Assembly: GCA_963664115.2 (NCBI GenBank)
Contig: CAXWPJ010000005.1
Coordinates: 160,001-224,000 of the forward strand
From: Terriglobia bacterium
GTDB taxonomy: Bacteria; Acidobacteriota; Terriglobia; 20CM-2-55-15
Direction of reading: 5' to 3'
Length of the DNA stretch: 64,000 nt
The position numbers and the translations under genes are program-made. Position 1 is the stretch's first letter; the number at the start of each line of letters is the position of its first letter. Shown here piece after piece: positions 6,675 to 54,625 of the stretch. The notes below the pieces were generated by a model. That model was not told the origin of the DNA and did not search any database. It worked only from the letters and a program-made list of their open reading frames with translations.

Positions 6675-6765
6675 GTCTCGACTACCGACAATTTGATTTG
6701 TCAGGACTTGAGCCCTCAATCACGGCACTGGCCCCCGTCCAAGTCGTTTCAATCCGAATTGAAGC
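6675..6765 (-). repeat. Degenerate kinase 3'-end remnant (..RGPVP*) plus 38-bp IR
   Basis: Minus strand reads GTGCCGTGA-TTGAGGG-CTCAAGTCCTGACAAATCA, matching 44533-44551. Confidence 0.75.
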
Positions 6766-6807
6766 AAGGGAGGCTTTTAATAATTGGATTGTGCGTCTTC
6801 GGGATTG

Positions 6808-7215
6808 TCATGACGGGCCGGTGGCGTGACTCGAATATACGGTGATCGTCTTCTCATCGGGATCGGTGATCTCGAATATGTAATGTCCGTAGGGTCCCTC
6901 ATCAACTGGTCCGGGTTTAAGGCCCTTACCGACAAGTCGCTCTCGATAGGCTTCAAGATCATCACGAGAGGTGCCACTGACCATCAACTCGAACCCTTCC
7001 TGCGCCCCGATTCGTGAGGCTGGTAAGGCCTGCTTCGTTCCTTCATCGTCGATGAGCATTAGGTGAGTCCCTCCGAGCAATTCAAGGATCGACATGCCAG
7101 GTTCTGCCACTACTTTGCGAAGGCCCAGCTTCAGGTAGAACTTTCTACTCTTCCCGACGTCCGACACATGCATCACAACGTGGCCAATCGCCACTTGGGG
7201 TCGTTTGTTGTCCAT
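6808..7215 (-). CDS. VOC/glyoxalase family protein
   Basis: IGHVVMHVSDV..SRKFY..LGL and FEITDPD motifs. Confidence 0.88.
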   Translation of the reverse strand: MDNKRPQVAIGHVVMHVSDVGKSRKFYLKLGLRKVVAEPGMSILELLGGTHLMLIDDEGTKQALPASRIGAQEGFELMVSGTSRDDLEAYRERLVGKGLKPGPVDEGPYGHYIFEITDPDEKTITVYSSHATGPS

Positions 7216-7329
7216 GTGAACTTCCTATGACCTGCAACGGATTTGCTTGACGATCCAGTATAGCCAGAAGGGACTTGTAGGACGTCGAGAATCGAATTCA
7301 GAAGCGAACACATGGAAGACAGCCCACCG

Positions 7330-7371
7330 CTATCGCACCGGCACCCGTTCCTTCAGTTCTTCAGACCAGTG
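7330..7371 (-). repeat. Kinase 3'-end remnant HWSEELKERVPVR*
   Basis: Near-identical in DNA to 43866-43907. Confidence 0.9.
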
Positions 7372-7445
7372 CCTTTCGCGCGGGTTTGTCGGCCCCACTA
7401 CGCGTTCGCGCTTTCAGTCGGCGGCAGGCGAAAACGAACGGCTTT

Positions 7446-7495
7446 GTACTTTACTATGCAAAGTACTTGACATCAGGAAGACGCTGCTTTAGCTT
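7446..7495 (+). promoter_or_regulatory. Palindromic operator GTACTTT-N7-AAAGTAC abutting a sigma70 promoter
   Basis: Palindrome at 7446-7466; TTGACA at 7467-7472; 17-bp spacer; TAGCTT at 7490-7495; GAGG then ATG at 7503. Confidence 0.7.
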
Positions 7496-7502
7496 CGAGG
7501 TC

Positions 7503-8120
7503 ATGGAAGCATCGCATCAGGGTCCGTCCGGCGTAGAGGTGCCCGTGGGTTTGGACGTCCGCGCGGTAGCCAACCTACGCTTCATCCGGCAGACGATGGA
7601 GCGCTCCGCCGTGTTCACGTCTCTCTCCGGCCGCGGAGCTATTCTGATCGGGGTAACCGCGGTTGCTGCCTCCTGGATCGCTTCGGGTCAAGCGGAGTTC
7701 ACCGGATGGCTTGGCATATGGCTTGCTGAAGCCGCCGTGGCCATTCTGATCGCGATTGCAACAACGCTTCCCAAGGTCCGAGGGCTGGAGACACCAGCTA
7801 CTTTGCGCCCGATCCGAAATTTTGCGCTCGGAATGGCGCCGCCGTTCTTAGCCGCGGGTGTTCTCACAGCGGCGGTGGCGGGGGCCGAGCAGTTCAATTG
7901 GGTGATTCCCGGCATGTGGTTACTTCTGTACGGATGCGGCATCGCAACGGGCGGTGCGTTTTCGATCCGGATTGTGCCGATAATGGGTCTGCTCTTCATG
8001 CTCCTGGGCACGTTGGCCTTGTTCCTACCCTCGACTCTGCACGACGCCCTGCTCGCTTTCGGATTCGGCGGGTTGCACATCGTGTTCGGAGTGATCATCA
8101 CCTGGAGGTACGGTGGCTAG
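7503..8120 (+). CDS. Multi-pass membrane protein, hypothetical
   Basis: NLRFIRQTMERS followed by about 6 TM helices; ATG at 7503 with RBS. Confidence 0.8.
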   Translation: MEASHQGPSGVEVPVGLDVRAVANLRFIRQTMERSAVFTSLSGRGAILIGVTAVAASWIASGQAEFTGWLGIWLAEAAVAILIAIATTLPKVRGLETPATLRPIRNFALGMAPPFLAAGVLTAAVAGAEQFNWVIPGMWLLLYGCGIATGGAFSIRIVPIMGLLFMLLGTLALFLPSTLHDALLAFGFGGLHIVFGVIITWRYGG

Positions 8121-8505
8121 ATCGGAGGCGGTTCGAAAGCCTCGCAAAGGGGAAGCACACACCCAGGCGCATCCCCCACGGCTTGTGCGCCGATTCGATG
8201 GACGAGAAGCACTGGATCTGGACCGCCTGATTCATGAGCGGACTCGCCTGGCGATCGTCAGCGCGCTGGCCGCTACCACCCGACTTTCTTTCAGCGAACT
8301 CAAGAAGCTTCTTGATCTGACGGATGGGAATCTGAGCGTCCATTGCCGCAAGTTGGAGGAAGCGCAGTATGTCGACTGCAAGAAGGGCTTCGATCGGCGC
8401 GTACCCAAGACAACCTACAGACTGACTGCGAAAGGACGCCGCGCGCTCGAGCGCTATCTGACTCACATGGAAGCCTTGATCGCTTCCGCACGGCGGGTGG
8501 AGTAG
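8113..8505 (+). CDS. Winged-helix transcriptional regulator (HTH_34/MarR-like)
   Basis: LDRLIHERTRLAIVSAL, LTDGNLSVHCRKLEEA and TTYRLTAKGR motifs. Confidence 0.9.
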   Translation: MARSEAVRKPRKGEAHTQAHPPRLVRRFDGREALDLDRLIHERTRLAIVSALAATTRLSFSELKKLLDLTDGNLSVHCRKLEEAQYVDCKKGFDRRVPKTTYRLTAKGRRALERYLTHMEALIASARRVE

Positions 8506-8509
8506 AAAA

Positions 8510-9268
8510 TTGCCAATAGACTTTACACTACAACGTACTTTAACAAGCGTCTTCCATGCGCCTCATCTGGCCATCATCATGGACGGCAACGGCCGCTGGG
8601 CCGAACGTCGCGGCCAGCCCCGGGCAGTAGGGCATCTGGAGGGAGCCCAGGCCCTACGGCGCACCGTGGGCGGCGCGCTGGACCTTGGAATCGGAGTGCT
8701 GACTCTCTATGCCTTTTCAGCGAACAACTGGAAGCGTCCCAGGGTGGAAACCGGCCGTCTGATGGACCTGTTCCTCGATTTCCTGAACGGGGAAGCCTCC
8801 GCATGTGTGAAACACGGAATCCGCGTGAAGGTGTTTGGGAGGCGGGACCGCCTCGGTGCGTCTCTTCGAGAGGCCATTGAAGACGTGGAAAGCATTACCG
8901 CGAACTCTCGGAACCTTTGTCTCCGGCTCGCCATTGACTACTCCGCTCGAGACACCGTGGTGCGGGCCGTCCAGGCCCTCTGTGCCGACACCGCGTTCGA
9001 GGGGGGTTCGCTCAGGAGAGCCGTCAGGGAAACATCCCACGACACGATCGTTCCGCCTGTCGATTTGTTGATTCGTACGGGTGGGGAACAGAGGCTGAGT
9101 GACCTGTTCGGCCCTGAGTGCGCTGATGCCGAGATCCTGTTCACTAAAACGATGTGGCCGGACTTTGGGGAAACCGAACTGCGCGAAGCGCTGGCCGAGT
9201 TTCGCCGGCGCGAACGGAGGTTCGGCGCTCTTGCTGACCCGGTTCCCAGCGTCCTACGTCTCGTATGA
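8510..9268 (+). CDS. uppS: Polyprenyl (undecaprenyl) diphosphate synthase, cis-prenyltransferase
   Basis: HLAIIMDGNGRWA, YAFSANNWKRP and VDLLIRTGGEQRLSD motifs; start codon uncertain. Confidence 0.9.
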   Translation: MPIDFTLQRTLTSVFHAPHLAIIMDGNGRWAERRGQPRAVGHLEGAQALRRTVGGALDLGIGVLTLYAFSANNWKRPRVETGRLMDLFLDFLNGEASACVKHGIRVKVFGRRDRLGASLREAIEDVESITANSRNLCLRLAIDYSARDTVVRAVQALCADTAFEGGSLRRAVRETSHDTIVPPVDLLIRTGGEQRLSDLFGPECADAEILFTKTMWPDFGETELREALAEFRRRERRFGALADPVPSVLRLV

Positions 9269-9363
9269 GGGGCGGAGTACGCGCCGATTTCTGACGAGCG
9301 AGGGAAAGGGACGTGGTCAGCTCAGTCGGCTGAACCCGCAAGTTAAGAAAGGACTTTTCAATT

Positions 9364-9867
9364 ATGCAACAGATTTCTCCCATCGCACGCAACAGCTCGG
9401 GCACTGCGACCGACGGCTCGGGTGCGGCCAAACGGACCAACGGACGATCCAATCGACTCAGCGTCGTCACTAGCCAGAGGGTGGAGTTCCACGACCTTAC
9501 CTCGCGGGTTGAGGCCGCTGTCAAGGCCAGTGGTATCGGTTCCGGCACCGTGACGGTTCGGTCCATGCACACAACCGCGGCCGTATTCCTCAACGAGTGG
9601 CAGGAAGCTTTACTGGCGGACTGTCAGCGGCTCTTCGAGTTGCTGGTGCCGGACGGAAAGGACTGGAGGCACAACGATCCCCGATACTCCGATTGTCAGC
9701 GGGGCAACGCCGCGGCCCATCTGCGAGCGTTGCTTCTTGGTTCATCTGTATCGTTGCCTGTGCGCGACGGCCAGATCGAGCGCGGAACCTGGCAGTCGAT
9801 CATCTTCGCGGAGTTGGACGGGCCGCTAAACCGGTCTGTCGCGGTTGAAATCCGCGGACAGTTCTAA
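9364..9867 (+). CDS. yjbQ: YjbQ/UPF0047 secondary thiamine-phosphate synthase family
   Basis: HTTAAVFLNE, NAAAHLRALLLG and GTWQSIIFAELDGP motifs. Confidence 0.9.
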   Translation: MQQISPIARNSSGTATDGSGAAKRTNGRSNRLSVVTSQRVEFHDLTSRVEAAVKASGIGSGTVTVRSMHTTAAVFLNEWQEALLADCQRLFELLVPDGKDWRHNDPRYSDCQRGNAAAHLRALLLGSSVSLPVRDGQIERGTWQSIIFAELDGPLNRSVAVEIRGQF

Positions 9868-10039
9868 TGGCAGTGGCGATAGGGTTCGCCATTCCCTGCG
9901 CAAGGCGAATTACCAATCAATCGGGCAATCCATATCTGCTGTGGGCTTCGTTTCGGCGCGGAAGGTGACTCACAGGGGGTTATACCGCTCTGGAACCCCA
10001 CCATCACCCTCATCAATCATCAACAACGGAGGCAAGCTC

Positions 10040-10590: not shown

Positions 10591-11436
10591 CTACTCCAGG
10601 CTTCTGTAGATGCTGTCGAGGAAGCGCTCCCCGTTTCCGGACCAAGAGGCGTAAGCCGCGAGTACCCCTTCCTCCTGAATCTGTTCCGAGCTCCGTCCGG
10701 CGGAATGCTTTTCTCTTACCATTTCAATGGATTCTTCGAGCATGCGGTGAAAACGTCGCAGGTCGTCGACATCCGCCCTTGCCGGCCCGTGTCCCGGAAT
10801 GATTCTGGCGTCAGGAGCGACCTGGCTGAGAACGTCGCCGATATTGTCGGTGTAACCGATCGCGTTTCCGCCTCCGTCGATATCGATGAACGGAAAGGTT
10901 TCCACCCAGAAGTGATCACCCATGTGAACGACGTTGGACCCGGTAAAGAAAACGATGACGTCGCCATCCGTGTGTCCGGTCGGATAGTGCACGAGCCGGA
11001 TTTCTTCACCGTTCAGGTGCAATGACACGTCATCATCGATCGTGATCGTCGGCCACGCACCTTGAGGTTGATCCAGAAGACGCCGCCGCACATTGCTATG
11101 CGCGATAATCGGGGCCAGACTGCCGAAAAACTCATTGCCGCCTGTGTGGTCCCCATGGAAATGCGTGTTCACGACAAAGCGGAGGTTTCCTTCGCTGATA
11201 TCGGAGAGCGCGGACTCGATCCTCGGCGCAAGAGGGGCAAACTGGTCGTCCACAATAAGGATTCCATCCTCTCCTGCCGACACACCGATGTTCCCGCCAC
11301 TCCCTTCGATAACGTGGATCGGACCTGTCAAAGACGTCGTCCGGATCTCGATGTCATCGAAGTTTCGCTGAGCTACGATTCGAGCGCTGAAAGTGGCGAA
11401 CAGAGCGCAACACACAATCACCCAGATCTTCTTCAT
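10591..11436 (-). CDS. Exported MBL-fold metallo-hydrolase
   Basis: Signal peptide MKKIWVIV; NTHFHGDHTGGN, GHTDGD, HMGD and IPGHG motifs. Confidence 0.9.
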   Translation of the reverse strand: MKKIWVIVCCALFATFSARIVAQRNFDDIEIRTTSLTGPIHVIEGSGGNIGVSAGEDGILIVDDQFAPLAPRIESALSDISEGNLRFVVNTHFHGDHTGGNEFFGSLAPIIAHSNVRRRLLDQPQGAWPTITIDDDVSLHLNGEEIRLVHYPTGHTDGDVIVFFTGSNVVHMGDHFWVETFPFIDIDGGGNAIGYTDNIGDVLSQVAPDARIIPGHGPARADVDDLRRFHRMLEESIEMVREKHSAGRSSEQIQEEGVLAAYASWSGNGERFLDSIYRSLE

Positions 11437-11469
11437 ACCTTTCTCCCGAGCTGAAACATAAACGGCCTC

Positions 11470-11630
11470 AAACGAGGGCCCCACACACTCCATGCTGACC
11501 CAGTGGAAAGCGGCTGTCGCAGTGAACCCTTGGGGTGGGGAATTTCATGAATACCCGCGTGTCAGAACGAAACGTCAAAAAGCTGGAGGAAGTCTATAGA
11601 ATGGGTGGATTGGAATCAATGAAATGTCAA
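11470..11630 (-). repeat. Degenerate kinase promoter plus 5' remnant
   Basis: Minus strand resembles 40245-40390; frameshifted codons read HCDSRFPLGQHGVCG against [15 protein letters not shown]. Confidence 0.6.
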
Positions 11631-11771
11631 GGTTCCCGACGAGGACTGGGAGGCGTCGGGAATAGATTTCACAGGGTGATCGGGAGGATCGACCCCGCTA
11701 TCGCTCTATAGACCTGGCCCGATAGCGTCTCCCTCGCCGGTCAGCTCACCACTTCGAAATGGCTGCTACTG

Positions 11772-14995: not shown

Positions 14996-16018
14996 CTAAT
15001 CGAAGATCGACTTCGCGATCTTCGCGTGGATGCCCTTGGTCCCGTCCACAAGCTGCGTCACGGCCAGGTCCATGGCCAGTGAACAGAGGATGTAGGCGGT
15101 CCCTCGTTCCAGTCCCTTTTCGGTAACCAGGAAATCGATCATTTCGCGCGTGGCCATCTGTGCCGCCGTATCCAGGTCCGGGTGCAATCCCATCGTGATG
15201 AAGTGGGTGGGCGTTTCCGCCCGCGGCCGCGTGAGCGAGAGGTCCTTGTGCAGAATGATACGGACCGTCCCGCGCAGGGAAGTCTCCAGGGCCGTCAGCG
15301 CGACTTCACCGTCGCCCTGTAAAGCGTGGCCGTCGCCGAACGAGATCAGGGCGCCGGGGACATGGACCGGCAGGTACAGCGTCGAGCCTGCGACGAGGTC
15401 CTTGTTGTCGAGGTTGCCCACATGGTGGCCCGGCGGGTTGGTATTGATACGGCCGAGAATCGGGTGCGGGCCGACGCCGATGGAACCAAAAAAGGGGGCG
15501 AGTTGGAGCGTGATGCCCGGAGCGAAGTCCACCGTGCCGGTTTCGGGATCGAAGCGTGTGAATTTCAACTCTGTGTAGGGGAAATCGTCCGGGAGCGTTC
15601 CCGCTCCCGGCACAAAAGCACTCACGCCGAAAGGATGGAGGAACTCGAAGCCCAGGATCTGCACCTCGAGCACATCTCCGGGCTCGGCCCCCGCAACGTA
15701 GATCGGGCCCGTCATCGGATGGGCGCCCGGACCTCGATCCTGTATGGCGTCCTCGACCACTTTCAGTGCCTCCGGTATTTCATCTTCGGGGGCGCCGGAG
15801 AGTCGAAGCCGTCCCAGCCCCCCGGCCAGAAGCGTTTCCACGCGAACGGTGTCGCCGGATGCGATCGTCAGCACCGGAGGCAGGCTGCCGTCGTAGTAGC
15901 CCCAGTGAACCCGTTCCGGAGTCACCTCCAGATCGTGGGTTTGTTGAAAAGCCTCTGCTGACGCGCTCGTCAGCCCTAAGAATGCTGTCAAAAGCACAAG
16001 CCGGGAGACATATTTCAT
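14996..16018 (-). CDS. Exported acetamidase/formamidase family protein
   Basis: Signal peptide from ATG 16018; HPMTGPIYVAGAEPGD, GNLD and GDGHALQGDGEV..TALE motifs. Confidence 0.9.
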   Translation of the reverse strand: MKYVSRLVLLTAFLGLTSASAEAFQQTHDLEVTPERVHWGYYDGSLPPVLTIASGDTVRVETLLAGGLGRLRLSGAPEDEIPEALKVVEDAIQDRGPGAHPMTGPIYVAGAEPGDVLEVQILGFEFLHPFGVSAFVPGAGTLPDDFPYTELKFTRFDPETGTVDFAPGITLQLAPFFGSIGVGPHPILGRINTNPPGHHVGNLDNKDLVAGSTLYLPVHVPGALISFGDGHALQGDGEVALTALETSLRGTVRIILHKDLSLTRPRAETPTHFITMGLHPDLDTAAQMATREMIDFLVTEKGLERGTAYILCSLAMDLAVTQLVDGTKGIHAKIAKSIFD

Positions 16019-16108
16019 TTTCAATATCCAATCGTTTGATGGTTTTGCTTTCCAGGAATCTGTCGTCAAAGTGCAGCATGCTCTGAGAAAACTGCTGGCA
16101 GAGCCTGC

Positions 16109-16159
16109 ACCCACCTCGTCCTTGCCGAGAGCAGACCGGATCGTGTAGTGGCCTGGCCG
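16109..16159 (-). repeat. Kinase 5' remnant RPGHYTIRSALGKDEVG
   Basis: Matches the LGHYEI...LGKGGMG pattern; in frame upstream of the acetamidase. Confidence 0.7.
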
Positions 16160-16194
16160 GCCATTTCTACAACGGGTCGTGTTGACAGCCAACA

Positions 16195-16506: not shown

Positions 16507-16523
16507 TGCTCTCTCCTTTATCT

Positions 16524-16592
16524 TTATGGCACCGGCACCCCTTCCTTCAGTTCTTCAAACCCGCTCAGGACAACTTTGATTCGGGGCCGGGC
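16524..16592 (-). repeat. Kinase 3'-end remnant ARPRIKVVLSGFEELKEGVPVP*
   Basis: Translation and DNA similarity to 43836-43907. Confidence 0.9.
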
Positions 16593-16639: not shown

Positions 16640-17140
16640 TTAGCTGCCGCCGACAACCGCGGTCGCCTTGACCTCCAGCAGCATGCCCGGACGCGCGAAG
16701 CCCACGACGGTAATCAACGCGCTCGACGGATAGTGTCCGGGTTCGAACTTCGTCGCTCGTATGTCGATGAACGGATCTCCATAGCGCGTATCACCGATGT
16801 AGACCGTCATTGTCACGATGTCGGCCAGCGTACCGCCAAATGTCGCCAGCCTCTCCTCGATCACTCTGAAAATCTCGTGGGTCTGCGCCTCGAAGTCTCC
16901 CATAATCGAATTCCCGTCCGCATCTTCCGTCGCCGTTACGCCCGCGAGCCAGACTGTCTTGCCCCCCTCGGTCGCAACGGCGGGAGAGAATGCCCGACCC
17001 TCCGTCCAATCCAAAGTCAGGTACTCCCGTGAAACGGCCCCCGCGTCCTGGGCATTCGCTGATCCCGGTAGCGTCAAAGTTGGAACGAGTATCGCCAGCA
17101 GCATCAAGCAGACTTTCTCTACAATGGTTTTGGCGTTCAT
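16640..17140 (-). CDS. RidA/YjgF family protein with signal peptide
   Basis: FSPAV, WLAG, FEAQT..IF and YPSSALITV.GFARPGMLLEVKATA motifs; GGAGG RBS. Confidence 0.88.
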   Translation of the reverse strand: MNAKTIVEKVCLMLLAILVPTLTLPGSANAQDAGAVSREYLTLDWTEGRAFSPAVATEGGKTVWLAGVTATEDADGNSIMGDFEAQTHEIFRVIEERLATFGGTLADIVTMTVYIGDTRYGDPFIDIRATKFEPGHYPSSALITVVGFARPGMLLEVKATAVVGGS

Positions 17141-17204: not shown

Positions 17205-17372
17205 TTTCCTGTGTCCCGAAGTGAAGCGCGAAAATGTGGATAAATCTAACTACAGGAGAGGTTTATACGCAAGAAAAGTCTCGCCCCTCTTAAACGACAT
17301 CGTCGGAAGTTCAGAAAGAGTCTGAATACGGGGGTTTTTCGATTTCCGACAAGACGACTTGTCAGATTTGAG
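17205..17372. repeat. Degenerate ~100-bp palindrome with kinase-type promoter on the minus strand
   Basis: AATACGGGGGTTT is shared with 54503; CGCAAGAAAAGTCTCG is shared with 32202. Confidence 0.65.
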
Positions 17373-33347: not shown

Positions 33348-33353
33348 TTCCTT

Positions 33354-33405: not shown

Positions 33406-33430
33406 TAGGGTCCATCACTAACCTTAAATG

Positions 33431-43772: not shown

Positions 43773-43835
43773 GCCTCGCCGGTTACACTGATGCTCACTG
43801 GAATCCGGACGATGACTGAGGTCCGGATTAATTCG

Positions 43836-44475: not shown

Positions 44476-44570
44476 AGGTTCGAGGAACTGAAAGAATGAG
44501 TGCCAGTCCCCTAAATGAGCGTGAAAATGATTCTCAAGTCCTGACAAATCATCTTCTCGGACATTGAGAA
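44476..44570 (+). repeat. Kinase 3' remnant RFEELKE*VPVP* plus 38-bp right IR
   Basis: CTCAAGTCCTGACAAATCATCTTCTCGGACATTGAGAA at 44533-44570. Confidence 0.9.
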
Positions 44571-44769
44571 TTCGTTGATTCCAACCATTGCTTCCAACCC
44601 ACTCGTTCCAAAACTAGAACTGGTTGCCAGAAGCCGCCTTCTGGGGCGTTGAATTTGGATCGGTAAACGCTACAGCGTTACTGAGGAGTAATCGTTGCGA
44701 TGATGAGGCTTGAACTGTTGGGGCCTTGGATACGATTCACATTTCCGCATACGCGATTATACGGCCAGG

Positions 44770-44972
44770 TGACTCTTCGATTGCTATTAAACCCAACATG
44801 TAGTTTGATTTACAAATGATAGAGCCGGACAGGACACCCGCACGCCACGAGATTCTTTCCATCCTCGAAAAAGGCGTCATGGGTCAGGTCTGGCGATAGC
44901 GACGCGAACATAGGACCTGAAACTGCGATCCGGACACTACCGGAAGAGCTCGTGAAAGACACCGACCGATGA
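44770..44972 (+). repeat. Decayed promoter plus kinase 5' remnant
   Basis: MIEPDRTPARHEILSILEKGVMGQVWR* / IGPETAIRTLPEELVKDTDR*. Confidence 0.8.
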
Positions 44973-45009: not shown

Positions 45010-46080
45010 ATACGACTGTCTCTAGACGATTTCGGCTTCTCACCGTTTTTCGCAAGAGCGCTCGGAGGCTTAGCCCCTGAGCTCGAGCCGGCACGCGTTA
45101 TCGTGTCGCGCGGGGCATTTCAGCGGGTCGTTACCGAACACGGCGAATCGGATACCTCGGTCTCGGGGACGCTGCGCCACAAAGCGTCCCCTGCCGGGCT
45201 CCCAACGATTGGCGACTGGGTCGCTGTTCGGGAGGGCCGGATCGAGAACGTCCTTCCCCGTCTCACCAAGCTGTCACGCAAAGTCTCCGGTAAACGGACG
45301 CGGGAACAGGTTGTAGCGGCGAACGTCGATACGGTTATCGTCGTGATGGGACTGGACCGGGACTTCAGCAAATCGAGACTCGAACGCTATCTGTCCACTG
45401 TGCGGGCCAGCGGGGCGAAGCCGGCGGTCGTCCTCAACAAAGTGGACGTCGAACCCGGTTTCGAAGCGCGGCGAAACGAGATCGAAACCCTCATGATGGG
45501 CGGCCCTGTCGTCGCAGCGAGTTGTCTGGAAGGTTTCGGACTCGATGAAGTTCGCGCACTGCTCCGCCCCCGACACACGGCCGTTCTGGTGGGCTCGTCT
45601 GGCGTCGGCAAATCGACGCTGATCAACTTAATGCTGGGTGAAGCCCGGCAGACGACGCGCAGCGTCGGCTCACACAACGACCGGGGACAGCACACCACGA
45701 CCCATCGGGAGCTATTCCAGATTCCAGGGGGAGCATTGCTCATTGACAGCCCGGGTATACGAGAACTCCAGCTCTGGGCAAACGATGACGGGCTCAGCCA
45801 GGACTTCGACGATATTACGCGGCTGGCGATTGCTTGCCGGTATCGTGACTGCGCCCATGACGATGAACCCGGCTGTGCCGTCACCGGAGCCATTGCGGCT
45901 GGCCGGCTCGACGCCGGACGACTCGACAGTCTCCGCACGATGCGAAAAGAACTCGAAACGCTTCGCAAGCGCAAGGATGATGCGAGGGATCGGATTGAAG
46001 AACGGAAGTGGCGAAGCACTCAACGAGAGATACGCCGATCGGGCGGCATTGAGGAACCGGATGGAGAGGAACCCGATTGA
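45010..46080 (+). CDS. rsgA: Ribosome small subunit-dependent GTPase A family
   Basis: IGDWV, VAANVD, LNKVD, GSSGVGKSTLIN, GQHTTT, DSPGIRE and CRYRDCAH..EPGCAV motifs; start uncertain (frame is open upstream of GTG 45103). Confidence 0.92.
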   Translation: MRLSLDDFGFSPFFARALGGLAPELEPARVIVSRGAFQRVVTEHGESDTSVSGTLRHKASPAGLPTIGDWVAVREGRIENVLPRLTKLSRKVSGKRTREQVVAANVDTVIVVMGLDRDFSKSRLERYLSTVRASGAKPAVVLNKVDVEPGFEARRNEIETLMMGGPVVAASCLEGFGLDEVRALLRPRHTAVLVGSSGVGKSTLINLMLGEARQTTRSVGSHNDRGQHTTTHRELFQIPGGALLIDSPGIRELQLWANDDGLSQDFDDITRLAIACRYRDCAHDDEPGCAVTGAIAAGRLDAGRLDSLRTMRKELETLRKRKDDARDRIEERKWRSTQREIRRSGGIEEPDGEEPD

Positions 46081-46146
46081 CCCCGGCCCGGGATCAACGT
46101 GGTGCCGAACTGGATCGAACAATGGACAGAACGGTGTCGGCGGCCT
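46081..46146 (+). repeat. Decayed kinase 3' remnant PRPGINVVPNWIEQWTER
   Basis: Aligns to RPQINVVLNWFEELKER, immediately after the rsgA stop. Confidence 0.75.
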
Positions 46147-46585
46147 GAAGCCAACCTGTCAAACCTGGGATGATCAATCCAACTATCTGTAACGATTTTC
46201 GAATGCCTTGTCCGCAACGCACGCGGGGGAGGACGTCATCTGCGATCCAAGAATCGACTGACATGTGGCTGCCGGACGCCCAATTTCCCTGAAACTCCCA
46301 AATAGTCCGGTGCTGGGCATCTGGGTCGATTTTAAATGCTTGGTAAGTCGCCTATACGGAAAAGTGCATTCAGAATGAGGCAGCGGATTACTCCTCCCTT
46401 GTCGCCTAGCGTTTAGGAATGGGCATTAACGACCCAAAAGTCGGCTTCGGGGAAGTCGGCGGAGACAGAGATGACGGCTCAAGTCCTGTATCTGGACTCC
46501 TCTGTCAAGTAGGCGCAGCTCTCCCGTCAGCTTTCTTCGGCAAAATGCATTCAGCAGGACTGACTAGAAGTTACGAGATGAGTAG

Positions 46586-48420
46586 CTAGTCCCTGAACAA
46601 GCGTGATTGACGAGGAAATGATAGTGCAATAAGAGCGGAAGTACCCGAAATGCCCCTCTCCGTGCGAAAAAAACCTTGGACAGATTCTTCGGAAAAGGAG
46701 GCATTTCAGATGAACGATTATACGCGCAAGAACATGAGGAACCGCAAGCGGCGAATCGAACGTCGGCTTGGGGACCGGCATTGGACGGATCAGGTAGAGC
46801 CGATGTTTTCGGCGAGCAACATTCAGTACGAGATGGGAGAGCGGACGCGGGGCACATCGGTTGGTGGTATCGGGACGATGCAACTGGTGGCGCGGCGGAC
46901 CGGGCTGATCGAAGCCATCGACAAGGGCGTGCATGTGTTGAAGCGGCACCTGCCGTATCACGAGTCGGATCACGTGCTGAACATCGCCTACAACGCCTTG
47001 AGCGGAGGAACGTGCCTGGAAGACATCGAACTGCGGCGCAACGATGCGGTGTATCTGGATGCGCTGGGAGCGCAACGGATTCCGGATCCGACGACGGCGG
47101 GAGACTTCTGCCGGAGATTCGAGGCCGACGACGTGGAGTGTCTGATGGAGGCAACCAATCAAGTCCGGCTCGGAGTCTGGCGACAGCAACCGGCGGCGTT
47201 TTTCGAAGAAGCGGTGTTGGACGCGGACGGGACACTGGCCGAAACCACGGGGGAATGCAAGCAAGGGATGGACGTGGCCTACGACGGGACGTGGGGATAT
47301 CACCCGCTGATGATCTCGCTGGCCAACACCGCCGAACCGCTGTATCTGGTCAATCGTAGCGGCAACCGGCCGTCGCATGAAGGAGCCGCGGTCCGGTTCG
47401 ACCAAGCCATCGCATTGTGCCGGCATGCGGGGTTTCGCCAGATCCTGCTGCGCGGGGACACGGACTTCAGCCAGACCCGGCATCTGGACGGATGGGACGA
47501 CCAGCAGGTGGGTTTCATATTCGGGATTGACGCGATGGCGAACCTGAAGGCCCGGGCCGATGAACTGGAGCCGCGCCAGTGGAAGCGCCTGGAACGGCCC
47601 GCGAAATACGACGTGGCGACCGAACCGCGCCAACGTCCCGACAACGTGAAGGAAGAGATCGTTCGGCAGCGCGGTTTCGACAATATCCGCTTGCAGGGTG
47701 AGGATGTGGCCGAGTTTCGGTATCGACCCGGAGCCTGCGATCGGGACTACCGTGTCGTCGTGGTGCGGAAGAATCTGTCGGTGGCCAAAGGAGAGCAGGT
47801 GTTGTTTGACGAATCCGGTACTTGGCTACATTACCAACCGTTCGGATCCGGCCGATCAGATTGTGATGCGTGCCAATCAACGGTGCAATCAGGAGAACTC
47901 ATTGAGCAGTTGAAGAACGGCGTTCAGGCGTTGCGGATGCCGGTCGGAGATCAGACCAGCAACTGGGCCTACATGGTGATCGCGTCACTGGCCTGGACAC
48001 TGAAAGCGTGGTTTGCATTGCTGCTTCCCGAAACCGGACGTTGGGGCCAAAAATATCAGGCTGAGAAGCAAACCGTGCTGCGCATGGAGTTCAAAACCTT
48101 CTTGAACGCTTTCATGCTTGTGCCGTGCCAACTCGTGCGCACCGGGCGGCGCATTCTGTTCCGGATCCTGGCCTGGAACCGGTGGTTGCCGGTCTTGTTC
48201 CGCGGGGTGGATGTGTTGCGTCGCCTCTGCGATGTTGACCCGATCATGACTTGAGCCCGGGCGATCGAGGTCCCGGTTTCTGTCAACCGTCCAACACCAG
48301 CGAGGCTGAACTGAAACAGATTCAACAGAAACTCGATACCTGGAACAGGCCATCCGGGAACGGGATTCTATGCCTCGAATTCTTCGGCGAACTGGGCCTC
48401 GGCGGACTGGTTATGCGCTT
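46586..48420 (+). mobile_element. IS1380 copy 2, frameshifted and lacking the outer right IR
   Basis: Near-identical to copy 3 but with several 1-2 bp deletions (near 46652, 47812, 47896, 48223, 48251, 48384). Confidence 0.85.
46710..48254 (+). pseudogene. IS1380 transposase with indels
   Basis: Diverges from the intact copy at VLFD|ESGTW and again at the C-terminus. Confidence 0.75.
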
Positions 48421-48431
48421 GAGATGAGTAG

Positions 48432-50288
48432 CTAGTCCCTGAACAAGCGTGATTGACGAGGAAATGATAGTGCAATAAGAGCGGAAGTACCCGAAATGCC
48501 CCCTCTCCGTGCGAAAAAAACCTTGAACAGATTCTTCGGAAAAGGAGGCATTTCAGATGAACGATTATACGCGCAAGAACATGAGGAACCGCAAGCGGCG
48601 AATCGAACGTCGGCTTGGGGACCGGCATTGGACGGATCAGGTAGAGCCGATGTTTTCGGCGAGCAACATTCAGTACGAGATGGGAGAGCGGACGCGGGGC
48701 ACATCGGTTGGTGGTATCGGGACGATGCAACTGGTGGCGCGGCGGACCGGGCTGATCGAAGCCATCGACAAGGGCGTGCATGTGTTGAAGCGGCACCTGC
48801 CGTATCACGAGTCGGATCACGTGCTGAACATCGCCTACAACGCCTTGAGCGGAGGAACGTGCCTGGAAGACATCGAACTGCGGCGCAACGATGCGGTGTA
48901 TCTGGATGCGCTGGGAGCGCAACGGATTCCGGATCCGACGACGGCGGGAGACTTCTGCCGGAGATTCGAGGCCGACGACGTGGAGTGTCTGATGGAGGCA
49001 ACCAATCAAGTCCGGCTCGGAGTCTGGCGACAGCAACCGGCGGCGTTTTTCGAAGAAGCGGTGTTGGACGCGGACGGGACACTGGCCGAAACCACGGGGG
49101 AATGCAAGCAAGGGATGGACGTGGCCTACGACGGGACGTGGGGATATCACCCGCTGATGATCTCGCTGGCCAACACCGCCGAACCGCTGTATCTGGTCAA
49201 TCGTAGCGGCAACCGGCCGTCGCATGAAGGAGCCGCGGTCCGGTTCGACCAAGCCATCGCATTGTGCCGGCATGCGGGGTTTCGCCAGATCCTGCTGCGC
49301 GGGGACACGGACTTCAGCCAGACCCGGCATCTGGACGGATGGGACGACCAGCAGGTGGGTTTCATATTCGGGATTGACGCGATGGCGAACCTGAAGGCCC
49401 GGGCCGATGAACTGGAGCCGCGCCAGTGGAAGCGCCTGGAACGGCCCGCGAAATACGACGTGGCGACCGAACCGCGCCAACGTCCCGACAACGTGAAGGA
49501 AGAGATCGTTCGGCAGCGCGGTTTCGACAATATCCGCTTGCAGGGTGAGGATGTGGCCGAGTTTCGGTATCGACCCGGAGCCTGCGATCGGGACTACCGT
49601 GTCGTCGTGGTGCGGAAGAATCTGTCGGTGGCCAAAGGAGAGCAGGTGTTGTTTGACGACATCCGGTACTTCTTCTACATTACCAACCGTTCGGATCCGG
49701 CCGACCAGATTGTGATGCGTGCCAATCAACGGTGCAATCAGGAGAATCTCATTGAGCAGTTGAAGAACGGCGTTCAGGCGTTGCGGATGCCGGTCGGAGA
49801 TCAGACCAGCAACTGGGCCTACATGGTGATCGCGTCACTGGCCTGGACACTGAAAGCGTGGTTTGCATTGCTGCTTCCCGAAACCGGACGTTGGGGCCAA
49901 AAATATCAGGCTGAGAAGCAAACCGTGCTGCGCATGGAGTTCAAAACCTTCTTGAACGCTTTCATGCTTGTGCCGTGCCAACTCGTGCGCACCGGGCGGC
50001 GCATTCTGTTCCGGATCCTGGCCTGGAACCGGTGGTTGCCGGTCTTGTTCCGCGGGGTGGATGTGTTGCGTCAGCCTCTGCGATGTTGACCCGATCATGA
50101 CTCTGAGCCCGGGCGATCGAGGTCCCGGTTTCTGTCAACCGTCCAACACCAGCGAGGCTGAACTGAAACAGATTCAACAGAAACTCGATACCTGGAACAG
50201 GCCATCCGGGAACGGGATTCTATGCCTCGAATTCTATCGGCGCGAACTGGGCCTCGGCGGACTGGTTATGCGCTTGTTTTGGGACTAG
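48432..50288 (+). mobile_element. IS1380 copy 3, complete
   Basis: Ends CTAGTCCCTGAACAAGCG ... CGCTTGTTTTGGGACTAG. Confidence 0.93.
48557..50089 (+). CDS. IS1380-family transposase
   Basis: 510 aa, AGGAGG RBS; same protein as copy 1. Confidence 0.93.
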   Translation: MNDYTRKNMRNRKRRIERRLGDRHWTDQVEPMFSASNIQYEMGERTRGTSVGGIGTMQLVARRTGLIEAIDKGVHVLKRHLPYHESDHVLNIAYNALSGGTCLEDIELRRNDAVYLDALGAQRIPDPTTAGDFCRRFEADDVECLMEATNQVRLGVWRQQPAAFFEEAVLDADGTLAETTGECKQGMDVAYDGTWGYHPLMISLANTAEPLYLVNRSGNRPSHEGAAVRFDQAIALCRHAGFRQILLRGDTDFSQTRHLDGWDDQQVGFIFGIDAMANLKARADELEPRQWKRLERPAKYDVATEPRQRPDNVKEEIVRQRGFDNIRLQGEDVAEFRYRPGACDRDYRVVVVRKNLSVAKGEQVLFDDIRYFFYITNRSDPADQIVMRANQRCNQENLIEQLKNGVQALRMPVGDQTSNWAYMVIASLAWTLKAWFALLLPETGRWGQKYQAEKQTVLRMEFKTFLNAFMLVPCQLVRTGRRILFRILAWNRWLPVLFRGVDVLRQPLRC

Positions 50289-50295
50289 TATAGCT

Positions 50296-50690
50296 GTGCT
50301 TCAGGTCTCTCACAATTGGGCGCCAGACGAAAGAAGATCACGTCTGACCAATCAGTGACAGGGAGAAACGAGCTGTCCCAGCCGAACCGGTCGCGCCGGA
50401 AGGCGAAGGGAAGGGGATGCTAAACAATGCATTATCGGGTACGAAATGTCCTGCCGCAGTCCGGTTGGAGGCTAGTTTCCAGGTAAGGAACCGGGAAGCC
50501 GTCACGGACCGGCCTCAGGTCTCGGCAGATCCGGGTAAAAGCTATCGCGTGTAATCGAATGGTGAGCGATTCATTGCGATACGTGAAGAACTAGCCGAGA
50601 CGCCGGAAGGCGGCATCGAACCGCCCAGTCGCGAGGCAATAACAAATGTAGCCGAGACGCCGGAAGGCGGCATCGAACCGCCCAGTCGCG
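50296..50690 (+). ncRNA. Structured RNA-like segment, possibly a truncated group II intron domain I
   Basis: No ORF; nested helices CAGACG/CGTCTG, AACCGG/CCGGTT, GCTAGTT/AACTAGC and TATCGC/GCGATA; CGCC-GGAA-GGCG hairpins. Confidence 0.45.
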
Positions 50691-50705
50691 AGGCAATAAC
50701 AAATG
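50592..50705. repeat. Exact 57-bp tandem duplication
   Basis: TAGCCGAGACG...AATAACAAATG at 50592-50648 and 50649-50705. Confidence 0.95.
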
Positions 50706-50935: not shown

Positions 50936-51067
50936 TCAAGGCTTTGCGCAGCACACACATGTGCAGTGGCACCGGGATGGTTCGCCCTCACATGTGCAGG
51001 AACAACCTTCCGGTCCACAGTCGCAATTTTCGCAGCATTTGCATTGGCACTGATGTTCGGTGGGCAT
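50936..51067 (-). CDS. Metallothionein-like Cys-rich peptide (43 aa, 14 Cys)
   Basis: MPTEHQCQCKCCENCDCGPEGCSCTCEGEPSRCHCTCVCCAKP; AGGAGG RBS just upstream; TATAAT at 51097-51092. Confidence 0.8.
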   Translation of the reverse strand: MPTEHQCQCKCCENCDCGPEGCSCTCEGEPSRCHCTCVCCAKP

Positions 51068-51172
51068 GTCAAACCTCCTTCTTCACTCGCAATTATAGCC
51101 GACGGACTGTCCCTTTCGCAGGGAGGCGGGGCAGCGCCACGAACGACCGGCTGATGGTCGCAGACGTCGATG

Positions 51173-51409
51173 GCGCGGGTCCCGGTGCCCTGATTTGCGA
51201 TCTCAAGTCTTGAAAAATTCCCTTCTCGGACATTGAGAATCGGGCAAATTTCTGGGGATTTTCAACGTCATCAAGAAGGTCGTTTGCCAGGACCTGAGAA
51301 TTTGATAGCGCCTAAATTACTCCTCTAGTATCTTTTACCGAGAATTTAACTGTTCATTTAGCGACACACTTCGAACATGGAATCTGGCACCAAACTCGAC
51401 CATTACGAA
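51173..51409 (+). repeat. Complete junction element: RVPVP*, ~100-bp palindrome, promoter, MESGTKLDHYE
   Basis: Palindrome arms at 51201-51241 and 51257-51299; TTGATA-18-TAGTAT; ATG at 51377. Confidence 0.9.
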
Positions 51410-51439
51410 CAATCGCTCGATTTTTTAAGGAGAGGTACT

Positions 51440-53104
51440 GTGAAACATTTGAACTGGAAAACGACAGTGGCTCTTGTTCTGTTCGCAAGTTCCGTTGCTG
51501 CATCAATGGCTCATGCACAGGATCAGGCTCCGGATCTGGTTCTGTCCAACGGAAAGGTCGTTACTGTAGATGACCGCTTCACGATCGCAGAAGCGGTGGC
51601 TATCGGGGGCGAACGTATCGTGGGAGTCGGCACGAATCAGGAAGTCGCGCGACTGGCCGGGCCCAATACCCGAACGATCGATCTCGGAGGGCGTACCGTT
51701 ATTCCCGGCCTGATCGATAACCATGCTCACATCATGGAAGAAGGTCCGATCTGGCAGTTGGAACTGCGTCTGGATGGGGTGGAATCGCGGACCGAAGCGC
51801 TCGAGATGATACGCGGGCGGGCAATCGATCTGGGTCCGGGCGAATGGGTTTTCACACTGGGCGGTTGGGCGACGGATCAATTCACAGACGACGTGAGTCA
51901 TTTCACACGCGACGAGTTGGACCGGGTTGCTCCCGACAACCCGGTACTGTTGCAGTACACACGCTCCCACACTTATCTCAACAGCCGCGCTATAGAGGCC
52001 ATCGGGTTGAATGAGATGAACGCTCCATGGATCGTGCGCGATGATGGCGGAAGACCGACAGGCGTGATCGAAGCTGAGGGCATCAACCAAGTCGGACGAG
52101 CGCGTCCCGCGCCGCCAGAAGAATTGTTCGAATCCAGCAGCCTGGCAATGATCCGCGATATGAACCGAGCGGGTCTTACCACGGCCGGCGGTCCCTGCCC
52201 CGCGAACCTCATAGACAGGTTCCGGCAATTTGCAGATGAGGGTCGGCTCAATATGCGGTTCTTCTGTTTTCTGCCGACGGGAGCGTCCGGCACCCCAGCC
52301 CAGGTGGATCGCCTTCTGCCGCAGATCGCCGAGTTGAAACCGTTCCAGGGCGACAACTGGGTGGATCTGACCGCCTACGGAGAAAGCGTATACCGCCCGC
52401 TGCACGACAGCATGCTGGCACGCACAACCAATCCAACACCCGAGCAGCTTTTCCAGTGGCGACGCGTCGCGACTGAAGTTGCCCGTGCTGGATTACCGCT
52501 GCACGTACACGCCACGATCGAGAACACGATTACCGGATTTCTCGACCAGATCGAGCTGATTAACCAAGAGTACCCCATACGGAATCTGCGCTGGGCTTTG
52601 GCTCATGTTGACCAGGTGAACGCCTCACACATCGAGCGCATGAAGGATCTCGGGATGTACCTCGCGGTACATACGCGGCCGACCGTCATGGGCCAGATCT
52701 TCAACCGTGCGCATGGCGACCGTTCCTACGATATGCCGCCGCTGGCGCTCATCGAGAACAGCGGGATCGTGTGGGGCCTGGGAAGCGACACGTTCGAGGT
52801 GAATCAGTACCGGCCGTTCACGACCCTCTGGTGGGCTGTGACCGGGAAGATGGTAGGCGGCACCGAGGTCCTCAGGCAGACAATCGGCCGCGAAGAAGCC
52901 TTGATCGCCCACACGCGCGAAAATGCCTACCTGGTGTTTCAGGAAAACAATCTGGGTTCAATCCAACCCGGCAAGCTGGCGGATCTGCTAGTTCTGGACC
53001 GCGATTACCTGACGATTCCAGCCGACGAGATCAAGGACATCCAACCCCTGATGACGATTGTAGGAGGACGCATCGTCTACGACGCCGACGCTGATCAGGA
53101 CTGA
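51440..53104 (+). CDS. Exported amidohydrolase (Amidohydro_3/YtcJ-like)
   Basis: GTG with AGGAGAGG RBS; IPGLIDNHAH, HVHA, AH, GSD and GSIQPGKLADL motifs. Confidence 0.92.
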   Translation: MKHLNWKTTVALVLFASSVAASMAHAQDQAPDLVLSNGKVVTVDDRFTIAEAVAIGGERIVGVGTNQEVARLAGPNTRTIDLGGRTVIPGLIDNHAHIMEEGPIWQLELRLDGVESRTEALEMIRGRAIDLGPGEWVFTLGGWATDQFTDDVSHFTRDELDRVAPDNPVLLQYTRSHTYLNSRAIEAIGLNEMNAPWIVRDDGGRPTGVIEAEGINQVGRARPAPPEELFESSSLAMIRDMNRAGLTTAGGPCPANLIDRFRQFADEGRLNMRFFCFLPTGASGTPAQVDRLLPQIAELKPFQGDNWVDLTAYGESVYRPLHDSMLARTTNPTPEQLFQWRRVATEVARAGLPLHVHATIENTITGFLDQIELINQEYPIRNLRWALAHVDQVNASHIERMKDLGMYLAVHTRPTVMGQIFNRAHGDRSYDMPPLALIENSGIVWGLGSDTFEVNQYRPFTTLWWAVTGKMVGGTEVLRQTIGREEALIAHTRENAYLVFQENNLGSIQPGKLADLLVLDRDYLTIPADEIKDIQPLMTIVGGRIVYDADADQD

Positions 53105-53149
53105 TCGACCCAGGACCCGCCAATTGCAGAAAGGAAGCTCGTCACATCG

Positions 53150-53245
53150 CTCCTGAACTGGTTTGAAGAACTGAAGGAAGGTGTGCCCTTTCCGTGATTT
53201 CGAGTTCAAGGTGACAACGAATCATATTGTCGGTGGTTGAACATT
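53150..53245 (+). repeat. Kinase 3' remnant LLNWFEELKEGVPFP* plus decayed right IR
   Basis: Near-identical to 43863-43907; TCAAG...AATCATATTGTCGG..GTTGAA follows. Confidence 0.9.
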
Positions 53246-53321
53246 GGATCGTTGATGGCAGAGTCAGCGGTTGATCCAGCCCTGGATCATTGTAATCAAG
53301 CAGACGACACGAGAGGTGGAG

Positions 53322-54341
53322 ATGAACATCAAGATTTGTCGCACCGCGGTTGCGCTCAACCTGCTCTGGCTGGCCACCATGGGATGTCAGGTGGAGGATC
53401 AAGCAGATGGAGCGGCTGGTTCGGATGCAGCGCGCACCACGGCCGTTCTGGCCGCAGGGCCTAACGCCGCCCTGTCACAGTTCGCTTTGCCCGACATCGA
53501 GATCCGTTCTGATCTTGAGTTGGGAACGTTGCCCGAGGGCTGGAGAACCGGCGGACCAGACTGCACCGACATGCCCCGCTGGCAGGTACACGCGTACAAC
53601 CCTGACTTCTATATCCTCCGACAGTCCGGCTGCATCCACTATGAGAAGCCCTTCCTGTACCTGATATTTGGTGAGGAGCGGGCCTTGCTTGAGGACACCG
53701 GTGCCGGTGATGCGGATACCGCGGCCCTCGTCCTGCCGCTCGTGGAGCAATGGTCTGAACGAAACGGCAAGGACAGCCCGATTCCCCTGACCGTCGTTCA
53801 CTCGCACTCTCACGGCGATCATGTGGCCGGTGATCGGGGGTTCGACAACCTTCCTGGTGTCGCAGTCGTGGCCGCTGCTGTCGGCGATATCCAAGTTGCC
53901 TTTGGAATTGAGAACTGGCCGTCGGATACGGGTCAGATTGATCTTGGCGACCGCGTGCTGGACGTGATTCCCATTCCGGGACACGACGGGGCGAGTATCG
54001 CGCTGTATGACCGGGCGACGGGGGTGCTCCTGACCGGAGACAGCCTCTACCCGGGCCGGCTCTACGTGGGCTACAACAACTTCCGCGCCTTCGTCGAGAG
54101 CAACCAGCGGCTCGTAGATTTCACCCGGGACCGACCCGTTGCCCACATCCTGGGCACGCACATCGAGCAGACTCGGACTCCTTTCGTTGACTATCCGCGG
54201 GGCACTCGATACCAGCCTGACGAACACACGCTCGAGATGTCGCGGGGATTGCTTCTCGAGTTGAACGGCGCACTCATTGACCTCAACGGAACGCCGGAAG
54301 AGGTCGCGTTGCGCGACCTCACGTTGTTCCCGATTCGGTAA
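53322..54341 (+). CDS. MBL-fold metallo-hydrolase lipoprotein
   Basis: HSHSHGDHVAGD, IPGH, TGDSLYPGRLY and LGTH motifs; lipobox TMGC. Confidence 0.9.
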   Translation: MNIKICRTAVALNLLWLATMGCQVEDQADGAAGSDAARTTAVLAAGPNAALSQFALPDIEIRSDLELGTLPEGWRTGGPDCTDMPRWQVHAYNPDFYILRQSGCIHYEKPFLYLIFGEERALLEDTGAGDADTAALVLPLVEQWSERNGKDSPIPLTVVHSHSHGDHVAGDRGFDNLPGVAVVAAAVGDIQVAFGIENWPSDTGQIDLGDRVLDVIPIPGHDGASIALYDRATGVLLTGDSLYPGRLYVGYNNFRAFVESNQRLVDFTRDRPVAHILGTHIEQTRTPFVDYPRGTRYQPDEHTLEMSRGLLLELNGALIDLNGTPEEVALRDLTLFPIR

Positions 54342-54466
54342 GAGGCCTTGACCATCGTTGGGCCGATAGGCGTACACCTCTATTCCGGCGCCATGCAGTC
54401 CTAGGGTTCAGCCACGAGCCTCTAGCTGAGCGAATCAAGAAGACCGGATCCAGAACGAAAGCCATG

Positions 54467-54625
54467 CTCAAACCCTGACAAATCTTGTTGAGAATGGCTT
54501 GAAATACGGGGGTTTCCGAGTGTCCGGTTAGATCTTTTGCCAGGACTTGAGAGTTTGGTTGCGTCTGACCCTCTCGTTTAATATCTTTTACGAAGATTTT
54601 TCACTGTTCGATACGCTACACATAG
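54467..54625 (+). repeat. Shortened palindrome plus kinase-type promoter (no kinase codons)
   Basis: CTCAAACCCTGACAAATC ... TTTGCCAGGACTTGAGA, then TAATATCTTTTAC..ACTGTTC..GCTACACA, as at 51300-51370. Confidence 0.8.

Follow-up and report, generated by a model that had tools for sequence, protein, structure and literature searches.

The window analysed here, 64,000 nt of the contig CAXWPJ010000005.1 of a Terriglobia bacterium (G000:C5:160001-224000, G000 being the host genome), carries a series of unrelated genes separated by short pieces of a Ser/Thr kinase gene. Four repeated pieces are distinguished: T, the final 60 nt of the kinase gene; X, a 42-bp imperfect dyad that follows T and has its type copy at 44531-44571; P, the ~70 nt ahead of the kinase start; and K5, the kinase start. 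X′ will denote an inverted dyad with a second class of spacer, and Y a related dyad. The original prediction, made from the letters of the window, had read the genes as cargo framed by the two ends of a vanished kinase-TolB gene. Nucleotide profiles built from the genome copies outside the window were run on it, with 20 block-shuffled windows as control, in which no match was obtained at E<0.1. Seven of the eight predicted 5′ pieces were matched in this way (11542-11633(−), 16105-16153(−), 31995-32238(−), 36908-37042(−), 40218-40475, 44743-44964 and 51274-51408), the one at 43909 not being found, and eight of the ten predicted 3′ pieces were clear (6672-6738(−), 7335-7370(−), 16523-16585(−), 42384-42465, 43848-43908, 44477-44578, 51173-51249 and 53145-53250), the one at 46090-46147 being weak (E 0.024) and the one at 22200 not being found. 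Two leaders (17210-17308(−) and 54522-54622(+)) had been overlooked, as had the dyad X itself (6685-6713(−), 40210-40250(−), 42420-42459, 44531-44571 and 51200-51240). That the window holds no intact kinase was borne out; a frameshifted, near-complete one (G000:C5:155791-158460) ends 1.5 kb to its left. Contigs of four public runs from four studies, one of which may be the source of the assembly, span several of the window junctions with 0-3 differences (e.g. 51058-52795 and 53017-54762), and therefore the layout is not an assembly artefact. The pieces and the genes beside them are:

6672-6738, − strand: degenerate kinase tail T with partial dyad X (profile E 1.5e-9), behind the glyoxalase-family cargo gene 6808-7215 (−)
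7335-7370, − strand: kinase tail T (profile E 3e-11)
11542-11633, − strand: promoter-like leader P (most of the match) and decayed kinase start (profile E 5e-6), ahead of the MBL-fold gene 10591-11493 (−)
16105-16153, − strand: decayed kinase start K5 (profile E 1.5e-5), ahead of the formamidase-family gene 14996-16018 (−)
16523-16585, − strand: kinase tail T (profile match), behind the RidA-family gene 16640-17140 (−)
17210-17308, − strand: leader P (profile E 1e-13), ahead of the RidA-family gene
31995-32238, − strand: P and kinase start K5 (profile E 1e-32), ahead of the Vgb-like propeller gene 30298-31875 (−)
36904-37042, − strand: P and K5 (profile match), joined ~100 bp ahead of the aldehyde dehydrogenase gene 35318-36763 (−)
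40210-40250, − strand: inverted dyad X′ of the second spacer class (profile match)
40258-40324, + strand: leader P, a putative promoter judging by its conservation; this copy is without a sigma-70 match
40327-40482, + strand: kinase start K5, a stub of 51 codons; its stop and the following start overlap (ATGA)
40479-42179, + strand: cargo, K+ channel with TrkA domains; a 93% identical module lies behind a longer stub in the relative G001
42384-42459, + strand: half tail T (42384-42413) and dyad X (42420-42459) (profile E 3e-23)
43320-43772, + strand: cargo, SnoaL-like gene
43848-43908, + strand: kinase tail T (profile E 1e-20)
44477-44571, + strand: decayed T (44477-44513) and dyad X (44531-44571), behind the lipoprotein-like gene 43987-44424
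44743-44965, + strand: decayed leader with a Y-type dyad, and K5 (profile match), ahead of the RsgA-family gene 45103-46080
46090-46147, + strand: weak T, behind the RsgA-family gene
46478-46487, + strand: left arm of an X, truncated where an IS110-family element ends that is itself interrupted by two IS1380-type copies (46575-50283)
51173-51408, + strand: complete junction, with the end of T, X (51200-51240), inverted X′ (51253-51309), P (51307-51375, with a sigma-70-like match of 9/12) and an 11-codon K5
51506-53104, + strand: cargo, amidohydrolase, its start probably slightly further left
53145-53250, + strand: kinase tail T and decayed X (profile E 2e-18)
54463-54622, + strand: X-type remnants and leader P (54522-54622; P profile E 2e-15), ahead of an MBL-fold gene

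At E<0.05 the whole genome holds 155 T, 228 X, 77 P and 78 K5, while its reversed sequence gave no match at E<0.01 with any of the four models. Only four intact kinase genes are present, all encoding Pkinase + PD40 proteins. T is twice as frequent as K5, and X outnumbers both. The stubs align to the start or the end of Acidobacteriota-type kinase-PD40 proteins, as had been predicted, and these belong with the Hanks kinases, with an N-terminal Pkinase domain and a C-terminal PD40 (TolB-like) propeller that ends in the tail motif. The link to Acidobacteriota holds at the level of the class, because the relatives that hold X (eight stretches in three genomes of the species collection) are titled Terriglobia bacterium. 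T, X, P and K5 combine in 29 different arrangements across 318 junction units, the commonest being X alone (87), T-X (66) and T alone (60); 15 units hold both T and K5. Thirty arrays of at least five elements each cover 627 kb, or 12.8% of the genome, and 554 called genes, the element counts being slightly inflated since a few arrays at contig ends duplicate each other. Near-identical long duplications, possibly assembly overlaps, lie at such ends (G000:C2:1-14103 and C2:153232-167331; the array ends of C11 and C6). The arrays are strand-coherent: 79 of 81 successive X pairs within 6 kb are direct repeats and two are inverted. A tRNA or tmRNA gene stands beside 8 of the 30 arrays only, and the idea of tRNA-anchored islands was dropped.

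The first reading took one kinase with a swapped interior as the unit, and this did not survive the genome-wide count. The next same-strand element after K5 (n=78) was a T across cargo in only 25 cases, an X across cargo in 18 and a T with no called gene between in 9. Intact kinases carry the junction repeat on both sides. Rather than a frame with two ends, the unit that recurs is the junction of tandem kinases (T-X-promoter-K5). Within the window, K5-cargo-T frames are clear for the K+ channel and the amidohydrolase, whereas the RsgA-like gene has a weak T, the RidA gene has a leader only in place of K5, and the frames proposed for the aldehyde dehydrogenase and the lipoprotein-like gene were not upheld; no 5′ piece was confirmed for the latter, and the aldehyde dehydrogenase, formamidase and Vgb-like genes and the MBL-fold gene at 10591 have a 5′ piece only. 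Remnants had also been described as co-oriented with the cargo in nearly all cases. Among the scorable cases, with our own gene calls, T follows a co-oriented gene in 78/119 and K5 precedes one in 42/58 genome-wide, against 994/1649 (60%) for ordinary neighbouring genes, so that this description does not hold.

The 5′ stubs range from 8 to ~300 codons and the 3′ stubs are mostly of 10-25 codons, with a tail up to several hundred; therefore the inner joins are irregular rather than site-specific. The stub ahead of the K+ channel has ~150 codons in G001 and 51 codons in G000, where it was trimmed at a 10-of-11 microhomology, with the result that the stub stop overlaps the channel start. The amidohydrolase of G000 has a stub of 11 codons that joins immediately before the ribosome-binding site of the gene, and in G003 another leader precedes it. 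Four relatives have no stub at the place corresponding to that of the aldehyde dehydrogenase and carry other DNA instead. Among 50 stubs with an ATG, 32 have a co-oriented downstream gene, which in 15 of the 32 starts between −10 and +25 nt from the stub stop; at least three of those 15 close pairs are kinase continuations or insertion sequences (IS). One of the two P copies scanned has a sigma-70-like match, and no terminator was called in either. The placing of the stubs would be consistent with promoter capture with a translated leader, that is, illegitimate joins may have been retained when a gene gained the kinase promoter together with its leader.

The sister genera (G007, G013 and G017) suggest where the junctions come from. 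Their genomes have many intact kinase-propeller genes, often head to tail with the stop overlapping the next start, and they already show the order tail, short stub, unrelated gene. In G000, five long kinase paralogues are 33-48% alike as proteins, and their DNA is shared only at the kinase domain and the T-X end; two of the five carry T-X both upstream and downstream. A first step in tandem kinase genes alike as DNA only at start and tail, followed by the joining of stubs of variable length to unrelated genes, would account for these observations. T-X is multi-copy in all four same-genus genomes, and matches in other genera, among those listed, cover mainly T. In 358 kb of loci from the sister genera, 33 T, 28 K5 and a single X were found; Y often follows T there and is present in this genus too. 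From this distribution, X is probably a genus-level addition to the tandem-kinase junction.

The modules of the window are present in the same-genus relatives G001-G004 at ~80-96% identity, but scattered, and segments from distant places of G000 meet there at T, X or K5. A fixed order of cargo in relatives had been named as a finding that would speak against gene capture; the modules occur in other orders. Across 1.17 Mb of array loci in the relatives, none of the 20 junction units with homologues on both sides was collinear with G000 (X 0/13, T-only 0/5, K5/P-only 0/2), as compared with 605 of 627 random points, a control that includes points within genes and so overstates the contrast. The fair controls are gene gaps, of which 2/37 with an element and 40/88 without one were collinear (Fisher p 7e-6), and G002 alone, in which 1/27 gaps with an element, 20/44 array gaps without one and 45/53 gaps in 20 evenly spaced control stretches were collinear. 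These 20 stretches hold only one T, one K5 and one Y. That is, the arrays are plastic throughout and almost never collinear at an element. Element flanks compared between G000 and G002 have a median identity of 93.1% (37/97 at ≥95%), and control flanks one of 87.2% (18/162), which points to recent transfer between species. Two gene modules are duplicated exactly X-to-X within G000, X joins two segments on the metagenome contig L108 that are each 96% identical to a different G000 contig, and one anchored slot differs in content (L026).

Module 6676-7159 of the window terminates at X in G002 (91% identity), and module 7356-9870 has a T at the same edge in G001. G002 carries P-K5 at the place corresponding to that ahead of the MBL-fold gene 10591-11493 and a better kept X-P-K5 ahead of the formamidase-family gene 14996-16018, and it retains the T behind the RidA-family gene. 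The SnoaL-like module 43215-43907 recurs together with its T in G001 and G004 at 94-96% identity, beside other neighbours, and the amidohydrolase module 51420-53240 recurs, also with its T, in G003 at 94% identity and with another leader in front.

Where exchanges occur was examined with pairs of copies sharing one flank. For 17 independent pairs sharing the upstream cassette, the difference in the successive quarters of T amounted to 8% (nt 1-15), 63%, 74% and 107% of the random level. The variable positions of X follow neither flank (12 and 16 independent pairs), position 12 differing in 9/12 upstream-sharing pairs and position 30 in 6/16 downstream-sharing pairs, while the flanks themselves stay linked; switches were also located inside K5. 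These varied crossover places in T, X and K5 favour homologous recombination over one fixed crossover. Moreover, T-only and K5-only junctions break synteny without X, RecA is encoded in 5/5 genomes, and besides XerC and XerD no tyrosine recombinase was common to G000, G002, G003 and G004 (30 of 43 recombinase loci of the three relatives fetched). We therefore hold with moderate confidence that the junction repeats form a chromosome-wide family at which the neighbours of a module differ from one species to another, most likely because the copies undergo RecA-type homologous recombination. A module could be exchanged through a double crossover with DNA from outside, or could pop out and re-enter, with each of some 300 junctions as a potential target, and X may be a protein-bound site that stimulates exchange.

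A number of observations weigh against this. The shared cores are short (about 34-60 bp, and at most 250 bp with P-K5), MutS is present, and no RecT-type annealing protein was found in 13 genomes. Uptake genes were found only in part in assemblies that are 95-98% complete, comEC not being found in G000 and being split in G003, and dprA not being found in G002. The T profile jumps near nt 15 instead of rising gradually, and the right edge of X is sharp and its spacer almost invariant (153/184), features for which homologous recombination has no need. Array gaps without a detected element are also often broken, as the 20/44 collinear gaps of G002 show, the numbers of pairs are small, and the array stretches of the relatives were picked near known elements. 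Finally, no circle, empty site or within-population swap was seen in the short contigs of the public runs. Apparent joints in the reads of these runs, with sides of 20-48 letters, are best read as other copies of the repeats and were discarded as evidence of excision. Differences in depth between modules and RNA contigs covering parts of the window were set aside as well, as were, with respect to habitat, the runs that share only a small fraction of words with it.

Several features of X could alternatively indicate that X, X′ and Y are recognised by a site-specific recombinase, either XerCD acting on non-canonical sites or an enzyme such as that encoded at G000:C5:52189-53139, in which case the arrays would be an undescribed integron-like system with kinase stubs as the commonest cassette ends; we consider this possible, though rather unlikely. 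With the arms alone as pattern and no filter on the spacer, X has the layout arm, 6 bp, arm, the spacer being ATCATC in 153/184 sites and of the second class in 15, and symmetric arm positions (third positions of the inner arms) vary freely without covarying. X thus resembles a double-stranded binding site for a protein, with a spacer under constraint. The direct orientation of 79/81 successive sites and the two modules duplicated exactly X-to-X would fit such a system, as would the targeting of X by five types of mobile element (two IS110 types, an IS30-like element, a group II intron and an element with an integrase and a Y2 transposase), which parallels the insertion of IS at pdif and attC sites. 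The enzyme at G000:C5:52189-53139 (L098:4193-5140, −), an intact 316-aa tyrosine recombinase with a Phage_integrase domain that falls below all NCBIfam cut-offs, is flanked on either side by an inverted X′ site and a P-K5 that points away from it, and a 62% orthologue in G007 adjoins P-K5. However, it was not found in G002-G004, it was found in 8/35 family genomes, and 6/8 homologues have no element within 1.5 kb, so that it was rejected as general enzyme and is no more than a candidate. With a crossover in the spacer each arm variant should go with its own flank, which is not so (the 9/12 at position 12), junctions with T or K5 only break synteny as well, and the canonical dif at C2:108145 is unlike X. 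The original remark that no integrase was in view stands for a linked one; the genome does have integrases, namely an unlinked IntI and the C5 recombinase 107 kb left of the window. IntI (C9:714590-715549) has no element within 705-735 kb, none lies in the 20 kb around the IntI of G001 and G002, and IntI was not found in the X-rich genomes G003 and G004; with the attC tests failing too, it was discarded as the enzyme. The attC R boxes (RYYYAAC ... GTTRRRY) occur in 0 and 12 of 237 full X sites, a simple attC pattern gave no site in G000, and the complementarity of the cassette start to the outer arm of its own site is at the shuffled level (82 modules, mean match 1.54 versus 1.58, p 0.69). Nor is there a single crossover point as in integrons, the switches lying in X, T and K5, in small numbers. 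In its fullest form, which we can put forward only tentatively, this alternative would have an integron-like capture system of marine Terriglobia in which a tyrosine recombinase acts on the non-canonical sites X, X′ and Y, promoter, translated leader and first cassettes came from the kinase operon, and the genes that circulate between species number some 550.

Ordinary decay of an expanded kinase family in plastic islands, with ends kept alike by gene conversion and repeats that mark breakpoints without driving movement, appears unlikely. Stub lengths do form a continuum, the sister genera have many more intact and broken kinases, element-free array gaps also often break, co-orientation is barely above background, and the genome is full of IS. 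Yet decay does not yield 155 tails of ~18 codons with almost no interior, nor 87 X-only junctions, and it explains neither the distant G000 modules that meet exactly at X or T in other species nor the raised identity beside the repeats; the synteny results (0/20 units, 2/37 versus 40/88 gaps, 1/27 in G002) weaken it further. More doubtful still is that X is a hairpin akin to the repetitive extragenic palindromes (REPs), nicked and spread by an HUH nuclease of the REP-associated tyrosine transposase (RAYT) type, with the nicks starting exchanges. RAYT-like genes that are 61-90% alike occur in G000 (two), G002, G003 and G004, one of them 330 bp behind a decayed T-X and another behind P-K5, and an imperfect hairpin is predicted for X (z −1.3 and −2.0). 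The GT(A/G)G foot typical of REPs is found at only 1 and 14 of 237 X sites, though, the RAYT-like genes are not flanked by X on both sides, the copies of G002 and G003 have no element within 1.5 kb, and X is confined to the arrays with a stem that lacks covariation. With folding weak and covariation absent, X as a hairpin under pairing selection was also discarded, as was X as a terminator, none being called in the copies scanned. A stretch of G000 (C10:486000-499000) combines small toxin-antitoxin-like and helix-turn-helix genes and two RAYT-like copies beside a decayed T-X and a reversed tRNA-like fragment.

To homologous recombination between junction copies, the closest analogue is the shuffling of promoter-early stem-loops (PeSLs) in T4-type phages. 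The PeSL paper describes ~50 intergenic promoter and stem-loop motifs per genome in hypervariable regions of phages RB49 and phi1, proposes them as homologous-recombination sites at which modules are inserted, deleted or replaced with no identified integrase, likens them to integrons, reports mini-circles, and states that there was as yet no evidence for cellular organisms (PMC2839356). The repeats described here are likewise intergenic, concentrated in hypervariable regions and placed where modules are exchanged. They differ in lying in a bacterial chromosome and in deriving from the coding ends of a signalling gene, including a translated stub; X is not terminator-like, and where PeSL mini-circles were shown in phages, the present system is known from assembled sequence. 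With integrons and clusters of attC sites lacking integrases the arrays share long direct-repeat arrays of one- or few-gene modules, diverse accessory cargo, repeats targeted by IS110 elements and a group II intron, and a promoter with a short leader open reading frame before the cargo. Nonetheless, X is shorter and without the R-box consensus given among the attC features in PMC7439510, the module start is not complementary to its own site, crossovers are not confined to one point, a good many modules are encoded on the other strand, and IntI is unlinked or not found. The pdif modules of Acinetobacter plasmids, as portrayed in PMC13141974, are shuffled too, and their sites resemble X in that a 6-bp spacer separates two arms, the spacers fall into classes and IS target the sites, but the orientation of pdif sites alternates and they have boxes for XerC and XerD, whereas X sites are direct (79/81) and unlike the genome's own dif. 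In minimal mobile elements of Neisseria, gene content is also altered by homologous recombination in conserved flanks, those flanks being specific conserved genes at fixed loci according to PMC3787668. Here, by contrast, the flanks are hundreds of interchangeable short repeats, and modules also change place. Gene fragments or repeats that act as recombination handles, as here, are known too from the orphan modules of Rhs and polymorphic toxins and from the dRS3 repeat arrays of Neisseria. Rhs orphan modules rebuild the C-terminus of one protein; in the present arrays unrelated whole genes move and no fusion protein is rebuilt.

No MITE (miniature inverted-repeat transposable element), Rfam family, plasmid or phage record matches the remnants, in agreement with the original view that they are not a known MITE: Rfam gave no match in the window, T-X matched no plasmid or phage record, and the X pattern was absent from viral contigs. 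Arrangements and stub lengths vary, and MITE-type fixed ends with terminal inverted repeats were not seen. In the literature searched, which covers few subscription journals and excludes supplements, no account of this kinase-end repeat system was found. We conclude that the system is a real, genome-scale and previously unreported variant of repeat-mediated module shuffling. Its store of cassettes is comparable in size to that of a large chromosomal integron, although it needs no attC sites and no linked integrase was found, and it shows a possible route to such a library, from the junctions of a tandemly amplified signalling gene. As a cellular case with cross-species exchange, it makes testable how much accessory-gene flow uses short repeats that integron finders do not see. 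The junction repeat is also a ready PCR handle for harvesting cargo, which in the arrays (148 proteins scanned of 168 listed) comprises MBL-fold and other hydrolases, acetyltransferases, glyoxalases and many DUF6152 proteins.

The small DUF6152 proteins are the commonest cargo family, found at 17689, 19173, 33431 and 37259 of the window and at many array loci, often paired with a larger unknown protein. Another cassette array (L156:3973-5403; the C2 array of G000 at 253-272 kb) holds a 477-aa S1-domain protein like ribosomal protein S1. Where G000 has the solitary IntI (C9:714590-715549), G002 carries T-bounded modules, including window 32500-33930. The two-gene element with a tyrosine recombinase and a Y2/IS91-like transposase occurs at G000:C2:196490-198552 and seven related places; its copies begin and end at G|TT-like points, and they lie in or near X in 7/8 cases. 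The IS1380-type element (DDE_Tnp_1_4) is present in three copies in the window (46575-50283, two in tandem; 562-2301) and in ~78 copies in the genome. Behind the IS copies lies a structured-looking non-coding stretch (50290-50590), possibly a remnant of a group II intron, with no Rfam match at the gathering score. It is followed by a perfect tandem duplication of 57 bp (50592-50705) that appears as one copy only in all four public runs and is therefore strain-specific or an assembly slip. Tandem repeats of a 24-bp unit in an ankyrin gene (23639-23722) and of a 13-bp unit between two genes (33354-33405) were also seen in the window.

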